Shown here one piece after another: positions 1-14,427 of a DNA stretch of 64,000 bases. Numbering within the stretch: position 1 is the first letter of the stretch; the number at the start of each line of letters is the position of its first letter. The notes under the pieces were generated by a model. That model saw only the letters and a list, made by a program, of their open reading frames with translations, did not search any database and had not been told where the DNA came from. This stretch comes from a virus: positions 1,572 through 65,571 of IMG/VR virus record IMGVR_UViG_3300027908_000022. The stretch is one strand, 5' to 3'. The position numbers were made by a program, and so were the translations under genes.

Positions 1-3000
1 GTCGTCGAGGACGAGGGCGTCCTCTTCGTGCCGAACACGCAGATCGAGGACTTCCTGCCGACGCAGGCGCTCTATCTCCAGCGCATGAGCGTTCCGCACA
101 AGGCCATCGCGCTTCCCGATAGCGTGCGCATCGTCGTCCGGGCGAATGACGTTTATTGTCCGCCCTACGACGTGCATCGGCCGCTGCTCGAGAGCGGGCG
201 CGCGGCGCTGGTCGCGAACACCAGGTGGCAAGCCGATCTCTTCGGGTTCGCCAAGGAGCGGATCGTCATCTCGCCGATGCTCGATCCGGTGCCATTGGTC
301 GGGAAGACTCAAAGACTTTTCGTTTACGCGTCGGGTCCCATGAAGGGCCTCGAGGCCACGCTGGCCATGTGGCGGCTCCTCTGGCGGATGCACCCATCGA
401 TGATGAATGGATCGCAGCTCGTCATCATTTCGCCAGGTTGGGGGGATTTCTCTGGCGTGCCCGAAATCGATCGCGAAATCGGGGTCCGCTTCGAGGGAGC
501 GCCGACGCCTGAGAAATATCGCGAATGGATCGCCCGGGCCGAAGGCATCTTCTTTGTCAACACGATGCCCGAGACGTTCGGCAATGTGTGCGCCCTGGCC
601 GAGTGCTCGCGGACGCGAACACACGTTCTCTGCCGGACCGGCATCGCGGGACTGGCGGAGGCCGTGGCCCAGCGCGAGCTCATCACGGAATCGCAAGAGG
701 CGTTCGTCAATGGATTCTTCAGGTATCTCGGCCAGCCGACCGACGACTTCAAGTGGACCCCGGTCCGCGCTCGGAGCCCCGAGGCCATCATGCCGGAATG
801 GGAGAAGGCGCTCGAGCTGACGCCACCGAAGAAGGCGACGAAGGGCAAGGCCCGGAAGAAGTCGGCCGAGACGGCGCTGCCTGCCGGGCCGCTACCGCGC
901 GCGCCGACGGACACCTCGGACCACGCCGCGCTCTACAGCCAGTTCAAAGAGGCCCTTCTCTCGCTCGGCGATCCGGTCGGCAACGTCACGAGCTACTGGC
1001 GCGAACGCGCCGCGGCGCAAGCCGAGTTTGCGCGCACCAAGCCGGTCGAGGACTTCCTCGCGTGGTCCGACGACGTGGACATGCACGAGCTCGACCTGTT
1101 CACGCCGTGGTATCGCGCGCTCCAGGCCTCGCCGCAGTGGGATCGATGGAAGCGGCTCAGTCGCAAGGCGCAATACGGCAAGCCGCACGCGTTCTCGCTC
1201 GACGAGGGCACCTCGCCCGTCGGTCTGCAGCACGCCTATCACCTGATGTGCTACGAGCAGATGACCGGAGCGCGGTTCCTCGACGGCGTCCAGACGATCG
1301 TCGAGGTCGGCGGCGGATACGGAAACTTTGCCCGTATGCTCCGCGAAGATGGGTTCCGCGGGACGCACGTCATCATCGACTTGCCGCAGACGCGCGAGTT
1401 CCAGAAGCTTTATCTCGGCCTGAACGGCATTCGTACCTCGACGTGCGGTCTTCTGCGGGGTGACTTTCGCTCGAACCTGATAGTCGACGGCGTCAACCTG
1501 GTTCTCGAGGAGGACATCCCGGACGTTCTCCGCCGGCTCGGCGACAAGACGAAGGGCGTCGCGTTCGTCGCTACGTGGAGCCTCAGCGAGACGCCGCTCG
1601 CGTTCCGGAGCAAGCTCTTCCCGGCGCTCTTCGACAAGTGCGGCAAGTACCTGATGGCCACCCAGTGGCCTCAGCACCATACCGACGGTATCGCGAACGA
1701 CGAATACTTTACGCAGTTCATGAAGGCCGCCACGGCAGCTCGTCCCGAGCTCGGATGGCGAACGGCGGTCATCGACCATCACCCGGGATCGCGATACCTC
1801 TTCGCAGGCGAGAAGCTGACGGCGCAATCGGTCGAGCAGACCTTCGCCGATGATCCGTCGCTCGCCTCGAACAAGGAGCCCATGGGTCCTTTCTTCGGGG
1901 ACTTCCTGTCGCTCCTGCGCGGCGCCATCGCGCCCGGCGGGTCCGAGCTCGGCGTCGGCCTCACGCTCTTCTCCTTGGCGGCATCCATTCGCGCGGCGAA
2001 CATCGTCGAGATCGGCCGCTTCAAGGGGTTCTCGACGCTCGCGCTCGCGGCGGCCTGCAAGCTCCAGGCGATCGGCTGGAGGGAAGGGGCCGGAGCCGAG
2101 CAGCGTCCGGACGTCGATTACGCGAAGCTCCTCGGTGAGCGCGATCGCAAGGTCATCTCGATCGATCCCAGCCCGACGCGGGAGGCCGACGAGCTTATCC
2201 GCAAGGCCGGGCTCGAGCCCTACGTGGCGAAGATCGACAAGGCCTCGGGCGACGTGTCGCTCGATCTTCCGATCGACCTGCTCTTCATCGACGGCTCGCA
2301 CATGATCGGGGACGTCCAGCGCGACGTGCAGAAGTACGTTCCGCTCGTCCGGCCGGGCGGATACTTCGTGATGCACGACTATTACGGCTGGTTCCAAAAC
2401 GGCAAGAACGGCAGCCCCATCGCGCGAGTCATCGAGGAAGACCTCGGGGGCTTCGAGCGCGTGCTCATCGACACCGGGTTCGCGAGCATGATGGTCTTCC
2501 GCAACACCGCGACCCTCGAGGCGCGGCCCGAACCTGTGCCGAAGCGCGCGGACGGGCGGCCGACGGTGGGGCTCGTCGTCATCGCCAAGGGCGACGAGGC
2601 GAGCACGGTGATCGCGCGCGCCATCGTGTCGGCCAAGAAGATCGGGGTCGACTGCACGACCGTCGTATGCGACGCCCAGGACAAGGTCGCCGAGGTCTCA
2701 CGACACCTCGGCGCGGATGTCTTCATCCGGCCGAGCCCGAAGGTCGATTGGGAGCAGGGCTACGGCGTCATCGCCGGCGCGCGCAACGAGGCGCTCAAGA
2801 TCGCCGAGCGCCGGACGGATTACGTCCTGCTCATCGATGCCGACGACTGGATCGAGGGAGAGCTCCCGAAAGAGCTGACGGCCGACGGCTACGAGATGCT
2901 CGTCTACGACGGCGGCATGGTCTACCCGCGCATCCAGCTATTCCGCGCCGGCCGCGGCTTCCGGTTTCATGGCATCCGGCACGAGCACCTCGTGATGGGC

Positions 3001-3651
3001 GGCAAGATCGAGCGCACCGGATCGCTCCGGTACTACCGCGGCCATTCGAGCTACGGATTCCAGGACCAGGATCCGCCGGAGGTCAAGTACAGCAAGCACG
3101 CCAAGGACTTGACGAAGTGGCTCATCGACCACCCGGACGATGCGCGCGCGCAGTTCTATCTCGCGCGGAGCTACCAGGATGCGGGCCGCGTGGCGGAGGC
3201 CATCGTCGCGTATGAGAAGCGGCTCGCCATGACGAACGGCTGGGACGAGGAGCGGTTCTACAGCGCATTCCAGATCGGCCTGATGGCCATGCGCAAGGGG
3301 GAGGATCCGACGCAAGCGCTCCTCCGCGCCCACGAGATCCGGCCGACCCGCGCCGAGCCGCTCGTCGTCTTGGCCCAGTGGCACCGCGACGAGAAGCGCA
3401 AGCACTTCTCGACGGCGTACGCGTTCGCGCGGCGGGCCGCAGCGATCCCCATGCCGAATGACGGGCTCTTCATGCAGGCCGCGATCTACGAGTTCGAGGC
3501 CATTGCCGAGCTGGCCATCTGCGCGTACTGGGTCGGCAACAAGGCCGAGAGCCTCGAGATATTCCGGAAGATCGCCGCGACATGCGCGCCCCACCGCAAG
3601 GAATGGGCCGACAATATGGTCGCGATGTGTGCTAGAGAAGTGGCTGCATGA
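1..3651 (+). CDS. Multidomain glycosyltransferase-like / sugar O-methyltransferase / Methyltransf_24 / GT2-TPR fusion (probably 5'-partial)
   Basis: 1207-aa ORF from 28, frame open back to base 1. SAM motif VEVGGGYG; LFIDGSH..D..YVPLVRPGGYFVMHDY; GT2 DxD motif YVLLIDADD followed by TPR-like helices (RAQFYLARSYQDAG). Confidence 0.75.
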   Translation, partial: VVEDEGVLFVPNTQIEDFLPTQALYLQRMSVPHKAIALPDSVRIVVRANDVYCPPYDVHRPLLESGRAALVANTRWQADLFGFAKERIVISPMLDPVPLVGKTQRLFVYASGPMKGLEATLAMWRLLWRMHPSMMNGSQLVIISPGWGDFSGVPEIDREIGVRFEGAPTPEKYREWIARAEGIFFVNTMPETFGNVCALAECSRTRTHVLCRTGIAGLAEAVAQRELITESQEAFVNGFFRYLGQPTDDFKWTPVRARSPEAIMPEWEKALELTPPKKATKGKARKKSAETALPAGPLPRAPTDTSDHAALYSQFKEALLSLGDPVGNVTSYWRERAAAQAEFARTKPVEDFLAWSDDVDMHELDLFTPWYRALQASPQWDRWKRLSRKAQYGKPHAFSLDEGTSPVGLQHAYHLMCYEQMTGARFLDGVQTIVEVGGGYGNFARMLREDGFRGTHVIIDLPQTREFQKLYLGLNGIRTSTCGLLRGDFRSNLIVDGVNLVLEEDIPDVLRRLGDKTKGVAFVATWSLSETPLAFRSKLFPALFDKCGKYLMATQWPQHHTDGIANDEYFTQFMKAATAARPELGWRTAVIDHHPGSRYLFAGEKLTAQSVEQTFADDPSLASNKEPMGPFFGDFLSLLRGAIAPGGSELGVGLTLFSLAASIRAANIVEIGRFKGFSTLALAAACKLQAIGWREGAGAEQRPDVDYAKLLGERDRKVISIDPSPTREADELIRKAGLEPYVAKIDKASGDVSLDLPIDLLFIDGSHMIGDVQRDVQKYVPLVRPGGYFVMHDYYGWFQNGKNGSPIARVIEEDLGGFERVLIDTGFASMMVFRNTATLEARPEPVPKRADGRPTVGLVVIAKGDEASTVIARAIVSAKKIGVDCTTVVCDAQDKVAEVSRHLGADVFIRPSPKVDWEQGYGVIAGARNEALKIAERRTDYVLLIDADDWIEGELPKELTADGYEMLVYDGGMVYPRIQLFRAGRGFRFHGIRHEHLVMGGKIERTGSLRYYRGHSSYGFQDQDPPEVKYSKHAKDLTKWLIDHPDDARAQFYLARSYQDAGRVAEAIVAYEKRLAMTNGWDEERFYSAFQIGLMAMRKGEDPTQALLRAHEIRPTRAEPLVVLAQWHRDEKRKHFSTAYAFARRAAAIPMPNDGLFMQAAIYEFEAIAELAICAYWVGNKAESLEIFRKIAATCAPHRKEWADNMVAMCAREVAA

Positions 3652-9021: not shown

Positions 9022-9094
9022 GTGGACATCAACGCACCACACGTACCATGCGCCCATCGCGTGGCTTACGTGGACCCATTGTCCCTGATGAATT

Positions 9095-9499
9095 CTGCCG
9101 CTCCAAGCCATACTGGTCCCGCCCTTGCCTCGACTGCCTAGCCGTGCGCCGCCGCCCAATCCGGTCCTATCCCATCCTGCCCCGCCGCTCCGACGAGCCG
9201 CCTTTCCCGTCCTTTCCCTGCCTGCCGTTCCTCTCCCGTCAGACCATTCCGATCCGGTCCGTTCCATGCCTGCCCGTCCGCTCCGACCCATCCGATCCGC
9301 CCGGTCCGCTCCGGTCAATGCCAAGCCTGCCGTGCCTCGCCTGTCCGCTCGCTTCCGATCCTAGCCTGCCGAGCCGACCCAACCGATCCGATCCCTTCCT
9401 GGACTTGCCTGCCGAGCCGGTCCTGTTCCACCAGTACCCGCCTATCCTGCCACGCCCGTCCGATCCAATCCGATCCGCCACGTCCCATCCTATCCTGCC
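9095..9499 (-). ncRNA. Short GG(A/C)NN pentamer array, putative guide-RNA array (VIPR-like), ~9 segments
   Basis: Minus strand reads GGCAGG ATAGG ATGGG ACGTG GCGG ATCGG ATTGG ATCGG ACGGG CGT GGCAGG... GGCAGG separators (CCTGCC on +) at 9494, 9446, 9408, 9365, 9326, 9269, 9221 and 9176. Starts 7 nt after the stop of 9507-10139. Confidence 0.75.
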
Positions 9500-9506
9500 G
9501 AAGCTG

Positions 9507-10139
9507 TTATTCCGCCGCCTTATCTCGCATTGCCGCCCTCGACGCCTCGAACATGTCGATCGCCTCTCGCATCGAGGCCACGAAGTCGACGTAATGCTCC
9601 GGCACGTTGCTCGTGCGACACCAAAATTCGAGCTGCCGGAATGCGCCGGCGACCAGCGCAAACCGCGCCGACGCCACGCGTGACGACAGGTCGAAACGTT
9701 CCCTGGCATCGGAGGCAAGCACGTTCGTGCGGCCGCGTCTCTCCTTGCCGTCCGCATCTCGGAACGTCGGAACATCGTCGACGTTGACCAGCATTGCCTC
9801 GCCGTGCACTCCCGGGACATTGGCGGTCACGACACGAACAGACCGGATGAACTTCCGACAATATTCGAGATGGGTCATCTCGATCGCCCGCTTGTCGGAC
9901 GGCATGTAGTGCCACAGCACGCTCTCGCGATTCGCGCGCATGTACGCGTAAATCTGCTTGGCCGACACCATCGGGACGTCGACCGCATTCAGGCGGGCGA
10001 TCGCCAATAGCTCGGGCGCGATTCGATCTCGGACGTCTTCGGACGTCCACGGAAAACCGTCGGCACTCGTGATGGTGCCGAGGCGAGGAGCGCGCGCCGC
10101 TTTCTTCAGCGGCGCGGCTCCCGGCTTCGACTTCTTCAT
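9507..10139 (-). CDS. Accessory protein coupled to the RAMP-like gene
   Basis: 210 aa, ATGA overlap. SVLWHYM.SDKRAIE..HLEYCRKFIRSVRV resembles the phage family SPLH..FEWDD..AA..YRL.QAR.LIRS. Confidence 0.7.
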   Translation of the reverse strand: MKKSKPGAAPLKKAARAPRLGTITSADGFPWTSEDVRDRIAPELLAIARLNAVDVPMVSAKQIYAYMRANRESVLWHYMPSDKRAIEMTHLEYCRKFIRSVRVVTANVPGVHGEAMLVNVDDVPTFRDADGKERRGRTNVLASDARERFDLSSRVASARFALVAGAFRQLEFWCRTSNVPEHYVDFVASMREAIDMFEASRAAMRDKAAE

Positions 10140-10972
10140 TCGGCCTCAGCCTCGGCCGACTCGTCCGCTTCGTGACGACCAACGGCCCCGTTCACGGTGT
10201 TGACCGCCCCCATCGCCCTGCGCGGCATGTTCGACCGGTCCTTGTCGGCCACGATCGTGGTCGCGGCACGGAGCAGCTCCGGCGGGATCTTGAACATCCT
10301 CTCCGGCAGCGAGCAGGCCTTGACGATCGCGTCGACGCTCTTCTCGGGAAGCGCCTCGACGGTGAAGCTCCCGAGATCGCCGCCCTTCTGCTGCCGGAAC
10401 TCGCAGAGCCCGACTTCCTGGCCCGCCTGTCGCAGCGCGAGCACGATTTTCGCCGCCGGGATCACGTTGTGCGGATACCGAATGACGACGTCAATATACC
10501 AGTCGGTATAAAGGCATCGCGCGCGAACGTCCGGCACGCGATCATTCCACGGTCCGACTTCGACGATGCGCACGTCCATTTCGTGCGCGCCGTGAATCGG
10601 CGCCGTATGGCCCATGATGCGGACCTTCTGTTTGATCTCGCTGGGCTTGACGCTCTTGCCCGTGGCCGACGCGCCGCTGACGAGGCAGGCCTTGATCGTT
10701 CGGCACGGGAGCACGTGCTCGTCCTTGACGTTGCGGTAATGCGACGACTCGTATTCGCTCGTCAGGTCTTTGGGCCGTTGCGGCATGTCGTGGCCGGTCA
10801 TTCGAGAGAGCATCTCGATAACGGCTTTTTCGCTCCATTGATGAACAAGAAGCGCGTCGCCGCGAATTCGGACCGGCATGAGCGCGAGATCGCCGCTCAA
10901 CACCTGAAACGGATCGTGATTCGACTGCTCCGCGACTTCGGGCTCGTTTGCCTTCTTCTTCTTCGCTGCCAT
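10136..10972 (-). CDS. Stand-alone RAMP / Cas7-like RNA-binding protein (Vipr-like effector)
   Basis: 278 aa; GAGGA RBS before ATG 10972. VRIRGDALLVH strand, LPCRTIKACLVSG helix, DVRAR.LYTDW.IDV strand and C-terminal Gly-rich loop ALRQAGQEVGLCEFRQQKGGDLGSFTV. Confidence 0.75.
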   Translation of the reverse strand: MAAKKKKANEPEVAEQSNHDPFQVLSGDLALMPVRIRGDALLVHQWSEKAVIEMLSRMTGHDMPQRPKDLTSEYESSHYRNVKDEHVLPCRTIKACLVSGASATGKSVKPSEIKQKVRIMGHTAPIHGAHEMDVRIVEVGPWNDRVPDVRARCLYTDWYIDVVIRYPHNVIPAAKIVLALRQAGQEVGLCEFRQQKGGDLGSFTVEALPEKSVDAIVKACSLPERMFKIPPELLRAATTIVADKDRSNMPRRAMGAVNTVNGAVGRHEADESAEAEAE

Positions 10973-11041
10973 GTTCGGTTCCTCGGCCTTTCGTTTGCGC
11001 CTTGACGACGCGTTGCAAGATGTAGCAACATGGCGCGGCAT

Positions 11042-11062
11042 CGGTCAAGTATATTTTGACCG
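11042..11062. promoter_or_regulatory. Palindromic divergent promoter/operator between the RAMP gene and the long array
   Basis: CGGTCAA-GTATATT-TTGACCG, perfect 7-bp arms. Overlapping -10-like hexamers TATATT (+, 11050-55) and TATACT (-, 11053-48). Confidence 0.55.
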
Positions 11063-11068
11063 TCTCAG

Positions 11069-12882
11069 GGCAGGATGGGAACGGCGAGGACGGGTGGCAC
11101 GGAGGGAACGGGGCGCGGCAGCGGCAGGCGAGGACTGGCGAAGAGCGGACGGGACGGGACAGGAGCGTACGGGCACGGCAGGCTTGGCGACGGATGTGGA
11201 GTGGAGCGGGCAGGATGGCGCGGCAGGCTCGGATGGAATGGAGCGGATCGGGCACGGCTCGGCATGGCATGACAGGCTAGGATGGAAGTGGACGGGAATG
11301 GGCGGGCGGTGCGCGGCAGGAGCGGCAAGGACCGGACAGGTCGGCGTGGCAAGGCAGTCATGGCACGACACGGCGACGGGTGGAGCGGAAGCGCACGGCG
11401 GGGCAGTCATGGCGGTGAGGGATCGGGAAGCGACGGGTCATAATGGGCAATGCGCGGCAGCGGCAGGCAGGGAAGGGTCTGATCGGAATGGAGAGGCAAG
11501 ATCGTGGCATGGCAGGCAGGGAACGGCGTGACACGAACCGGCATAGCGTGGCCCGGCAGGCAAGGAAAGGCGCGGACGTGACGGGATCGGAACGGACCGG
11601 CACGGCCCGGCAGGATAGGCAGTGACGGATAGGGGAGCGGTCGGAGGGGAACGGCTCGGCAGGCGCGGACAGGTGACATGTGGACCGGTGGGTACGGTCG
11701 GCTCGGCATGGCAGGCAGGCAGGGACCGGACTGGATGGGACGGGAGCGGAGAGAATGGCTCGGCAGGCATGACTGGGCGGGCGTGGCTTGGCGTGGCTGG
11801 GAAGGGCAGGATAGGCGTGCACCGGATCGGATCGGCTGGGCAGGCAAGGACTGGACTGGAGCGGCTCGGCCCGGCAGGCTTGGATTGGACAGGAGAGTAG
11901 CGGACAGCGAGGCAAGGCAGGATAGGCAGGGCACGGTACGGAAGGGATCGGATCGGCTATGGCTTGGCAGGCTGGGAAGGGATCGGATTGGACAGGGACG
12001 GGATTGGCTCAGCAGGCTAGGCAGTATTGGGGTCCGGACTGGAGCGGCAGATCGTGGCAGGGCAGGCAAGGCAAGGCGAGTAGCGGCACGGCGTGGCCCG
12101 GCATGACAGGCAAGGACGGGACGGGCTCGGCGGTCACATGGCCGGGCAGTCGTGGAGAGCATGGTCGCGGCCGGAGAAGGGCTGGGTGAGCCAGGAGTGG
12201 CTTAGGACGGGATCGGACAGGCGAGGCTTGGCAGGCTGGGAAGAATATGGAACGGCAGATCATTGGAACGGCGTGGCAGGATGGGACCGCATCGGAGTGG
12301 AGTCGACAGGACTGGCAATGGCCGGGCAGGCTAGGCGGCGAGTGGCGCGGATTGGAGCGGCGTTGGCAGGATTGGAGAGGACAGGATGGGTTGGCGGGGC
12401 AAGGCTGGGCAGGATGGGACCGCACAGGACCGGAGTGGACAGGCGTGGCAAGGCTGGGCAGGCTTGGATGGTATCGGCGAAGGATGGGAGGGCGCGGTCA
12501 GGCGTGGCAGGAATGGCTGGGATCGTCACGGACGGGACGGGACGGGCGCGGACGGCAGGCGAGGAATGGTCTGGATAGGACTGGCGCGGAATGACACGGA
12601 GAGGCATGGGGCGGCAGAAGGGGAGAGGAGCGGATGTGACAGGAGCGGAAGGGCAAGTCAGGCTAGGATCGGTCGGACAGGTTGGCGCGGAATGCCAGGC
12701 AGGGATCGGACCGGGGGGATTGGGAAGGACGGGATCGGCTCGGCAGGCTAGGAGAGGAGAGAAGGAGCGGCCAGGCCGGGCAGGCAGGGCACGTCTAGGT
12801 GACACCGGAGTGCACCGGACCGGAAGGGCAGGAATGGCACGGACGGGACCGGACCGGCCGGAGAAGGGCTGGGCAGGCTCGG
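11069..12882 (+). ncRNA. Long GG(A/C)NN pentamer array, putative guide-RNA array (VIPR-like), roughly 35-40 segments
   Basis: Example 11555-11614: GGCAGG CAAGG AAAGG CGCGG ACGTG ACGGG ATCGG AACGG ACCGG CACGG CCC GGCAGG. The 5-nt phase holds between recurrent GGCA(GG) separators; extreme purine strand bias; ends at a hairpin. Confidence 0.8.
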
Positions 12883-12885
12883 ATA

Positions 12886-12919
12886 ACGCAGCGGGCGATA
12901 AGCGATTCGCCCGCTGCGT
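12886..12919. terminator. 13-bp perfect hairpin between the convergent array and terminase gene
   Basis: ACGCAGCGGGCGA-TAAGCGAT-TCGCCCGCTGCGT, directly after the array end and abutting the terL stop. Confidence 0.65.
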
Positions 12920-14427
12920 CAGATATGGCCGCCGCGCTTTCGCAACCGATCCATTGCCGAGACCCAGGTCGGGCCGCCGCGTAGCCGCGCCACGGCGAGA
13001 ACAGCGGCATCCGCCATGTCGGCGTGTCTGCCGTCTTTCGTGACCGGGGCATCGTACTTTGTCGCGCCGTTCGGCATTCGCTTGAGCCGCTTGCTGAGCA
13101 AGTCGACCCCCAGCTGTTTGATCGGCGCCAATTCGAGTTTACTGTCCAGTAGCAGGGTCCGAAAATCGGCGTGATTCTTCGCCGTCTGTTCTGTTGTGTC
13201 CCTAGACACCTGGACCGTTACGCCTTGCATGTCCCCGTGTTCGGCGATCAACGATCCGGCGAACCGGTCCGAATAGACCTCGTGGAGCTTGTACTCCCTC
13301 AAAATGGGGGCGATGTCCGCGAATACTTCGCGCGCCTTGAGCGGCGCGCCGGATGTCCCTTGCCATTCCCAGCAACCGGCGACGAAGTATTTGTCCTTGG
13401 AGCTATCTGTCACGTCTTGCCGCTTGCCGGCCACGACGAGCGACCATGCGTTGCCTGATATTCCCGGATCCATCGCTGCAACATAATCGCATAGCTGATC
13501 GTAATCCGTCATCTCCGGCGTCGGCCGCGTGGCGACGCGCACTTCCATTGCGGTCAGCCATCCCTGATCGGGATCGACGAACTCGCCGAGAACGTCCGTT
13601 TGATACGAACTGTGCGGCGCGAGCCGCTCGGCTTCGCATGCTTCCGGAGTCCAGTTGAACGGACATATCTGCGGCCCGGTCGCCCGCATGATGATGAGGT
13701 CTTTCGTCGGCTTGCCGAACGACTCCTCGACCGCGTCATAAATTGGCCCGCGCGCGGCCCACGGGCTGCTGACGGCCAAGAGCTGACCGCCGATGAGTCG
13801 CAGTCGCGCGATGACGGCGAGCCTCGAGTCGTCGAAGTTGATCACGCCGTCTTCTGTTCCCTGCATTCGACAGGCTTCGTCGAAGATGGCGGCGATCGTC
13901 CACCGCGAGACGAGCGAGGCTCCGCCCTTGCGTCCGGCGGCAATCACGATCTCGACCTGGCGCCCGTCGTCGCGTCGGATCCAGAGCCGCTCCGTCGACG
14001 GCTTCGGGTTCTTCATCAGGTATCGATTGAGGGCGCCGCCCTCACGCGTCAGTGCGCCCATGAGGTGGTCCATAATCGCGCCGGCTTTATCTTTATCCAG
14101 CGAGACGACCGACACGCGCATCGGCTCGTATCTCTTGATTTGCGGCGGCGGCTTGATCGTCAGCGCCGTATGCAGCGCGACTGCGGCCATGATCAAGCTC
14201 TTGCCCGAGCGGATCGCACCGACGAGATAGAACTCCGTCGGTCTTCCTGCGGCCTCGATGGCCTGGATGGCCTCGACGCCGCCGAACGTTTGAATGACCG
14301 TCGGGTCACTCGCCAGCTCACCGAGCCGGCTACCGTCGATCACCCTGCACATCGCCCGTTGCACCGGGCTCGCCGTCGTCAGGGCGAACGCGCGCGGGTG
14401 CGTCAGAATCGTTTCGAGCGACGGCAT
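12919..14427 (-). CDS. terL: Terminase large subunit
   Basis: Walker A GAIRSGKS, Walker B AIFDEAC, RuvC-like AAMDPG and C-terminal GRHADMADA. Confidence 0.85.
   Translation of the reverse strand: MPSLETILTHPRAFALTTASPVQRAMCRVIDGSRLGELASDPTVIQTFGGVEAIQAIEAAGRPTEFYLVGAIRSGKSLIMAAVALHTALTIKPPPQIKRYEPMRVSVVSLDKDKAGAIMDHLMGALTREGGALNRYLMKNPKPSTERLWIRRDDGRQVEIVIAAGRKGGASLVSRWTIAAIFDEACRMQGTEDGVINFDDSRLAVIARLRLIGGQLLAVSSPWAARGPIYDAVEESFGKPTKDLIIMRATGPQICPFNWTPEACEAERLAPHSSYQTDVLGEFVDPDQGWLTAMEVRVATRPTPEMTDYDQLCDYVAAMDPGISGNAWSLVVAGKRQDVTDSSKDKYFVAGCWEWQGTSGAPLKAREVFADIAPILREYKLHEVYSDRFAGSLIAEHGDMQGVTVQVSRDTTEQTAKNHADFRTLLLDSKLELAPIKQLGVDLLSKRLKRMPNGATKYDAPVTKDGRHADMADAAVLAVARLRGGPTWVSAMDRLRKRGGHI

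Follow-up and report, generated by a model that had tools for sequence, protein, structure and literature searches.

A 64,000-nt stretch of viral DNA (IMG/VR virus record IMGVR_UViG_3300027908_000022, positions 1,572 to 65,571; hereafter the window, with coordinates counted from its first letter) carries between positions 9095 and 12919 what is very probably a VIPR (Viral Interference Programmable Repeat) system encoded by a phage. It consists of a gene for a Cas7-like RAMP protein, Vipr, a partner gene overlapping it and two noncoding arrays of GG(A/C)NN pentamers, one on each side of the gene pair. The finding is real, but VIPR systems of this kind have already been described; what is notable here is the size of the arrays, their orientation and the purine at the third base of the repeat. 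The window is part of a single 104,108-bp virus record from soil with 65% GC, whose head-morphogenesis, terminase, portal and protease genes mark it as a phage.

Our reference for VIPR is a pair of preprints covering its discovery and its structure by cryo-electron microscopy (cryo-EM) (bioRxiv 10.64898/2026.04.26.720920, bioRxiv 10.64898/2026.04.26.720927). VIPR, first described in 2026, is a CRISPR-like means of RNA-guided DNA silencing whose parts are the Vipr RAMP protein, an accessory gene and RNAs termed vrRNAs, in which GGY (Y, pyrimidine) alternates with two free bases, NN. The vrRNAs read double-stranded DNA with 1 base skipped per pair, leading to silencing of transcription, and the systems are for the most part phage-borne and directed at competing elements (bioRxiv 10.64898/2026.04.26.720920, 10.64898/2026.04.26.720927). 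In the SUSP1 complex as solved by cryo-EM, one Vipr protomer occupies each GGx triplet and displays the NN, with the guanines held by residues H17, D177, W178 and R138 (bioRxiv 10.64898/2026.04.26.720920, 10.64898/2026.04.26.720927). An initial annotation of the window had pointed to a phage system of this sort, with a Vipr protein and GGY/NN RNAs reading a gapped DNA target, and the preprints confirm that it exists (bioRxiv 10.64898/2026.04.26.720920, 10.64898/2026.04.26.720927).

The features of the locus, named in accordance with this assignment, are as follows.

9095-9499, minus strand: downstream vrRNA array of GG(A/C)NN pentamers, co-directional with the operon and starting 7 nt past the partner-gene stop; nine GGCA/GG boundaries (median spacing 43 nt) give ~8 units.
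9507-10139, minus strand: vap-like partner gene (P0002), 210 amino acids, with a 4-nt overlap with vipr.
10136-10972, minus strand: vipr gene (P0001), 278 amino acids, encoding a RAMP protein that has a single RRM, a G-loop and a thumb hairpin.
10973-11064, no strand assigned: putative divergent control region separating the large array from vipr.
11065-12885, plus strand: large divergent vrRNA array, 1.8 kb, in which 39 GGCA/GG boundaries give ~38 units of ~7-11 pentamers each.
12886-12919, no strand assigned: hairpin with a perfect 13-bp stem and an 8-nt loop at the array end, reaching the stop codon of the terminase gene, which runs convergently.

The arrays were recognised by their periodicity. 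In both tracts, the GG-to-GG autocorrelation at lag 5 was 2.4-2.5 times the expectation, and that at lags 2-3 was 0.05-0.41. Lag-5 GG pairs reached 17-19 per 100 nt only at ~9067-9540, where they appear as CC on the plus strand, and at 11006-12935, where they appear as GG on the plus strand; in the remainder of the 64-kb window their density was at most 6-7 per 100 nt. Three further tracts flagged in the 104-kb record turned out to be the poly-G contig end and ordinary sequence devoid of regular GGxNN units and were discarded. A Viterbi parse resolved both arrays into runs of pentamers composed of GG, A or C, and two free bases. Among 246 in-phase pentamers, positions 1 and 2 were G in 92%, position 3 was A in 52%, C in 36%, G in 10% and T in 3%, and the free positions 4 and 5 had entropies of 1.99 and 1.97 bits. 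The flanking arrays are thus made of at least four tandem 5-nt units with the GG kept and two hypervariable bases, which is what defines a VIPR array. The initial annotation's description of two noncoding arrays sharing one GG(A/C)NN grammar in 5-nt phase therefore holds at both sites. The two arrays are oppositely oriented: the left one runs in the same direction as the genes, and the right one diverges from them.

The pentamer runs are interrupted by GGCA, a 4-nt step that recurs every ~45 nt and divides the arrays into units. In the right array, composition predicts 4.0 occurrences of GGCAGG and 39 were observed, at a median spacing of 45 nt; 13 of the 30 spacings of at least 14 nt equalled 5k-1 nt (p = 0.003), and the remainder contained extra internal slips. 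Several GGCA steps succeed one another at only 4-9 nt. The third base differs within a unit: body pentamers are mostly GGA, and the final two pentamers ahead of GGCA are mostly GGC. Both arrays together comprise ~46 units, each of them different, and the similarity of one guide to another is at the level of shuffled sequences. A first impression of duplicated guides was not significant against shuffles. No structured 3′ tail, a feature of type II VIPR, was seen at unit ends, and the units abut directly at GGCA/GG. A scan of the locus with Rfam detected no RNA family and no hammerhead ribozyme.

The second line of evidence is the protein encoded at 10136-10972, for which the initial annotation had proposed a RAMP/Cas7-like nature and kinship with Vipr; both proposals were borne out. 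Neither Vipr nor the partner protein matched Pfam, and the only family found for Vipr was phrog_4652, of unknown function. In the AlphaFold2 model (predicted local distance difference test, pLDDT, 75), a long β-hairpin (residues 127-166) and a Gly-rich loop (184-201) can be seen. Foldseek searches of the PDB with this model gave 45 matches at E ≤ 1e-3, the best of them being type III Csm3/Cas7 subunits at a probability of 1.0, and alignment of the model to Csm3 by VIA-align yielded Z scores of 11.5 and 10.8. When 2.3 million AlphaFold clusters were searched, the best five matches were A0A0F9A1L0 (E 1e-12), X1U2U4, A0A661D0E2, A0A1F4YLN4 and A0A2D6XG06. These same five accessions are the founding Vipr proteins of the discovery preprint (bioRxiv 10.64898/2026.04.26.720920, 10.64898/2026.04.26.720927). 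At E ≤ 1e-3 the Vipr family comprises 2161 representative clusters.

A profile built from 12 homologues retrieved PDB entry 36pp_D, "SUSP1 Vipr protein", with an E value of 9.7e-5 over 142 residues. In this alignment, D177-W178-R179 of the SUSP1 G-loop correspond to E191-F192-R193, and the thumb residue R138 corresponds to R152. Within the clade alignment E191, R193 and R152 are invariant and F192 is variable. The alignment does not reach SUSP1 H17, for which H44, an invariant histidine on strand 1, is a candidate counterpart only.

The vipr start at 10972 is preceded by a Shine-Dalgarno-like GAGGAA motif, and the gene shares the ATGA at 10136-10139 with its partner; the two genes lie on the minus strand and overlap by 4 nt, so the coupling suggested by the initial annotation is real. 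Homologues of the partner adjoin vipr in the related loci L001, L002 and L008, and in L030 a partial gene occupies the partner position within a stretch aligning at 80% DNA identity. The partner model is of limited quality (pLDDT 73; predicted template modelling score 0.43), with a C-terminal helical hairpin as its only recognisable part. Comparison of the partner protein with Pfam, PHROG, PDB and AlphaFold clusters returned no match identifying its fold, and a word search for further partner sequence homologues retrieved none.

The locus has the minimal VIPR composition: vipr and an accessory gene in a phage record, without Cas1/Cas2. Profiles of Cas1 and Cas2 had no match in the 104-kb record, while positive controls were detected, in agreement with the absence of cas1/cas2 claimed initially. 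Nor does the locus qualify as class 1 CRISPR-Cas by its arrays, which have a 5-nt period and no repeat-spacer units. The record contains a single vipr copy.

The association of gene and arrays extends well beyond this phage. The initial annotation had reasoned that homologues without such arrays would speak against an RNA-guided system; in 21 of 22 IMG/VR viral loci with homologues, lag-5 GG arrays lie directly beside the gene. Units of 5k-1 nt ending in a 4-nt step are found in L002, L008, L006, L012 and in the Gordonia phages UmaThurman and ODay. Vipr identity to this phage is 84% for L030, 50% for L002, 38% for L008 and 26-28% for UmaThurman and ODay. The neighbourhoods of these loci differ: L002 has portal and capsid genes (its VIPR locus is placed between the portal and PF09979 protease genes), UmaThurman has an immunity cassette, and in ODay the locus lies between tail genes. 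The UmaThurman VIPR locus adjoins an integrase, repressor and excise cassette. In the same phage, gene 40 (L116:3065-3388), annotated as "hypothetical protein", lies directly after gp39 and almost wholly inside a GGCA-punctuated GGY-NN array, and it is probably a vrRNA array rather than a coding gene.

The DNA of the closest relative, L030, aligns with the window at 80% identity from the partner gene to position 11037, where homology ends. Beyond this point, L030 has a divergent array with the same grammar, whose free bases are unrelated to those of this phage. Since the operon is 80% identical and the free bases are unrelated, the arrays behave as a guide store.

The third base of the pentamer follows the clades. 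L008, L006 and the Gordonia phages have C or T there, this phage, L002 and L030 have A or C, and L012 has almost exclusively A. The last locus (L012:2755-3300) has a distant Vipr homologue and a 1.4-kb array in which nearly all pentamers are GGA-NN; its units end in GGAaa GGAac GGCT, with GTA coming next, and that clade normally has a purine as the third base. The arrays described here depart from the pyrimidine of GGY, as A predominates, which separates the locus from type II but not from VIPR as a whole. The discovery preprint allows for "a related consensus" and for NNNGG-type repeats in other types (bioRxiv 10.64898/2026.04.26.720920, 10.64898/2026.04.26.720927).

Another arrangement is outlined in the legend of fig. 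S18 of the discovery preprint, where the end of one vrRNA is the start of the next, with a 1-nt overlap, in what are called "staggered arrays" (bioRxiv 10.64898/2026.04.26.720920). Since this description fits the GGCA/GG junction and the 5k-1 spacing seen here, we filed the locus as VIPR of the staggered, tail-less kind, a match of architecture that we infer. Going further, we suggest tentatively, and at less than even chances, that this locus forms a distinct VIPR subtype together with L030 and L002. In this subtype, the Vipr pocket would take adenine at the third base, GGA would form the unit body and GGC would mark its 3′ end, the GGCA step would take the place of the structured tail in signalling filament or processing boundaries, and a divergent array of ~38 guides would be separately controlled. 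If this is true, the third base would carry positional information and would not be a mere scaffold.

Several observations weigh against assigning VIPR function to the locus. In sequence, SUSP1 Vipr is matched modestly (E ~1e-4), and by a profile against the PDB only. The SUSP1 pocket is said to exclude purines, yet the third base here is mostly A, and recognition of position 3 must therefore differ. Additional phase slips occur inside about half of the units, some of which may be decayed. A consensus scan recognised no σ70-like promoter. The sequencing runs that contain this sequence are soil DNA only, which bears on the transcription, processing and RNA binding that we predict by analogy. 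Finally, none of the scans made gave a target for the guides of this phage.

How the system would operate we infer by homology, and this covers transcription, processing at GGCA, filament assembly, the skip rule that this clade follows, silencing as the outcome and which targets are hit. Transcripts would be made of the G-rich strand of each array, together with the operon on the left and divergently on the right, and the 4-nt GGCA steps would split them into ~46 short vrRNAs of ~7-11 pentamers each. By analogy with the SUSP1 complex, each pentamer would be bound by one Vipr protomer, with GG and the third base buried and the two free bases presented, as the initial annotation had proposed for GGx and NN. 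The resulting filament would read double-stranded DNA, one target base being skipped per pair, usually that at the codon wobble position, and binding would silence transcription of the target, as with SUSP1. Genes of resident prophages, or of related phages that compete with this one, would be the likeliest targets.

Targets were sought in several ways. The free dinucleotides were used to search phage genomes with a one-base skip, as the initial annotation had advised; the search yielded no target for this phage's guides. Compared with their own genome, the guides had no match above shuffled guides, and self-matches are likewise missing for the systems of the VIPR paper (bioRxiv 10.64898/2026.04.26.720920, 10.64898/2026.04.26.720927). 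Read as codons and compared at the peptide level with the six-frame proteome, they gave nothing above shuffles. The same was true of ~218 kb of relatives' loci, of 32 kb of the L002 phage and of 1.1 Mb of head modules around PF09979 proteases from 80 related viral contigs. Exact one-base-skip scans were performed with five guides (11559, 12558, 11127, 12461 and 12412). Guide 11559 (20 fixed bases) had 0 matches in IMG/VR, guide 12558 matched neither IMG/VR nor any of 185,579 species genomes, and guides 11127 and 12461 had 0 matches. A single JGI metagenome match of guide 11559 lay on an AT-rich contig, where the next dinucleotide did not fit, and was judged to be due to chance. Two matches of guide 12412 (18 fixed bases), in unrelated genes and contigs, equal the chance expectation.

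A match was obtained in the reverse direction. Among 18 guides of relatives that were tested, one from L002 (L002:6876-6929) agreed at 18/20 free bases, with a one-base skip, with the PF09979 head-protease gene of this phage (G000:C1:87913-87942 = L032:2914-2943). This score was reached in 1/1000 shuffles, or ~0.02 when corrected for 18 guides, and skips of 0, 2 or 3 bases gave only 14-15. The site covers codons 21-30 of the protease, and all skipped bases fall on wobble positions. In the L002 phage's own genome, the best match of the guide is the homologous protease site, at 15/20; its best matches in L035/L036 are this same homologous site, at 17/20. The match supports a one-base-skip code and a role between phages in this clade.

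The guides could instead be aimed at the host chromosome or at resident prophages, serving host takeover, prophage induction or silencing of defence genes, and not at competing lytic relatives. In the P. fulva clade most guides do match resident prophages, according to the discovery preprint (bioRxiv 10.64898/2026.04.26.720920, 10.64898/2026.04.26.720927), and the failure of this phage's guides to match either the 1.1 Mb of phage head modules or L002 points the same way. However, one 22-base guide found no match in 185,579 species genomes, and the only target evidence in this clade is the head-protease gene of a rival phage. We regard host or prophage targeting as rather unlikely.

It is improbable that the large divergent array acts mainly as a decoy or sponge for the Vipr of competitors, or that it is a decaying and largely nonfunctional expansion. 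The phase slips in about half of the units, the GGCA steps only 4-9 nt apart and the lack of targets found for these guides would suit such a view, as would the report that vrRNAs encoded elsewhere compete for Vipr (October 2026 preprint). Against it, positions 4-5 have near-maximal entropy while GG is kept at 92%, all units are different, and the closest relative retains the divergent layout and fills it with other free bases; together, these properties fit selection on information content, not decay. That the arrays have nothing to do with the RAMP gene, being repetitive coding DNA, a packaging or replication signal or G-quadruplex-forming DNA by the terminase gene, is hardly credible: the right array does abut the terminase gene, and its composition of 48% G produces long spurious open frames, but a 5-nt period with 4-nt steps cannot stay in a reading frame, and arrays accompany vipr homologues in quite different neighbourhoods (L002, UmaThurman and ODay).

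In the assignment to VIPR that we prefer, the two noncoding segments bordering the large array may govern its expression. The control region contains a 6+6 palindrome, GGTCAA-7 nt-TTGACC, at 11044-11062, with an embedded TATATT box (11051-11056) ~12 nt before the first GG unit; this palindrome could be an operator or a promoter for one or both directions. In L030 an AATATT box occupies the equivalent place. At the other end, the hairpin at 12886-12919 is probably a bidirectional terminator, though it has no T run, and a terminator scan did not list it.

As for the wider genomic context, the VIPR locus has a Mu F-like head-morphogenesis gene on one side and the gene for the large terminase on the other, with the portal-NUDIX and PF09979 head-protease genes located elsewhere in the record. 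A terminase-based search for close phage relatives found none among GenBank phages or in IMG/VR, and Vipr sequence patterns had no match in species genomes. CheckV rated the record as linear and 89% complete; it starts with a run of >20 G (G000:C1:1-30), probably an artefact of assembly or of the sequencing end. Portal-NUDIX fusions (G000:C1:88044-91000, L032:3045-5999; L002:1500-5843) are unusually large portal genes in this phage group, and the L002 portal is also fused to Zeta-toxin/AAA_33 domains. At 28-3651 of the window, a 1207-amino-acid protein resembles a phage glycosyltransferase family and also has a methyltransferase domain (PF13578) and TPR repeats.

Like Cas7/Csm3 subunits, which oligomerise along the guide RNA at a fixed interval in class 1 complexes, the Vipr protein of this locus has an RRM core, a glycine-rich loop and a thumb hairpin. 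The locus differs from Cas7/Csm3 systems in having no CRISPR repeats, cas1, cas2 or other cas genes, in a period of 5 instead of 6 nt and in a sequence identity of 8-14%. The SUSP1 type II system of an Escherichia phage (PDB 36pp; vap1; four vrRNAs) is alike in its RAMP homologue with an acidic-aromatic-Arg G-loop motif and a thumb Arg, in having a two-gene operon with arrays to either side and in the phage context. The SUSP1 vrRNAs are ~100 nt long, contain 9-16 GGY-NN repeats and carry a pseudoknot tail at the 3′ end, whereas the units here are ~45 nt and tail-less; in addition, the third base here is mostly a purine, the protein has 278 amino acids as opposed to 202, and there are ~10 times more guides.

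The "staggered" VIPR of the discovery preprint (bioRxiv 10.64898/2026.04.26.720920), resembles the present locus in its minimal operon of vipr and accessory gene, in flanking 5-nt GG-x-NN arrays and in tail-less abutting units; relative to that account, this locus has A or C as the third base, with A in the unit body, ~46 units and a divergent larger array. VIPR is a discovery only months old, with mechanistic detail from one E. coli phage type. The locus described here is a clean, large and tail-less example from a high-GC soil phage, and it widens the known repeat grammar and array architecture. The L002 guide that matches the protease of this phage, and spares the allele of its own, supports a role in the conflict of phages with their relatives. 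In the Gordonia phages, UmaThurman gp39 and ODay gp19, 26-28% identical to the Vipr studied here, likewise precede staggered arrays punctuated by GGCA, whose units measure 39, 49 and 54 nt. Those arrays differ in having C or T as the third base, in being short (~0.2-0.35 kb) and in running co-directionally with the gene; with the same punctuation in cultured phages, UmaThurman and ODay offer tractable models.

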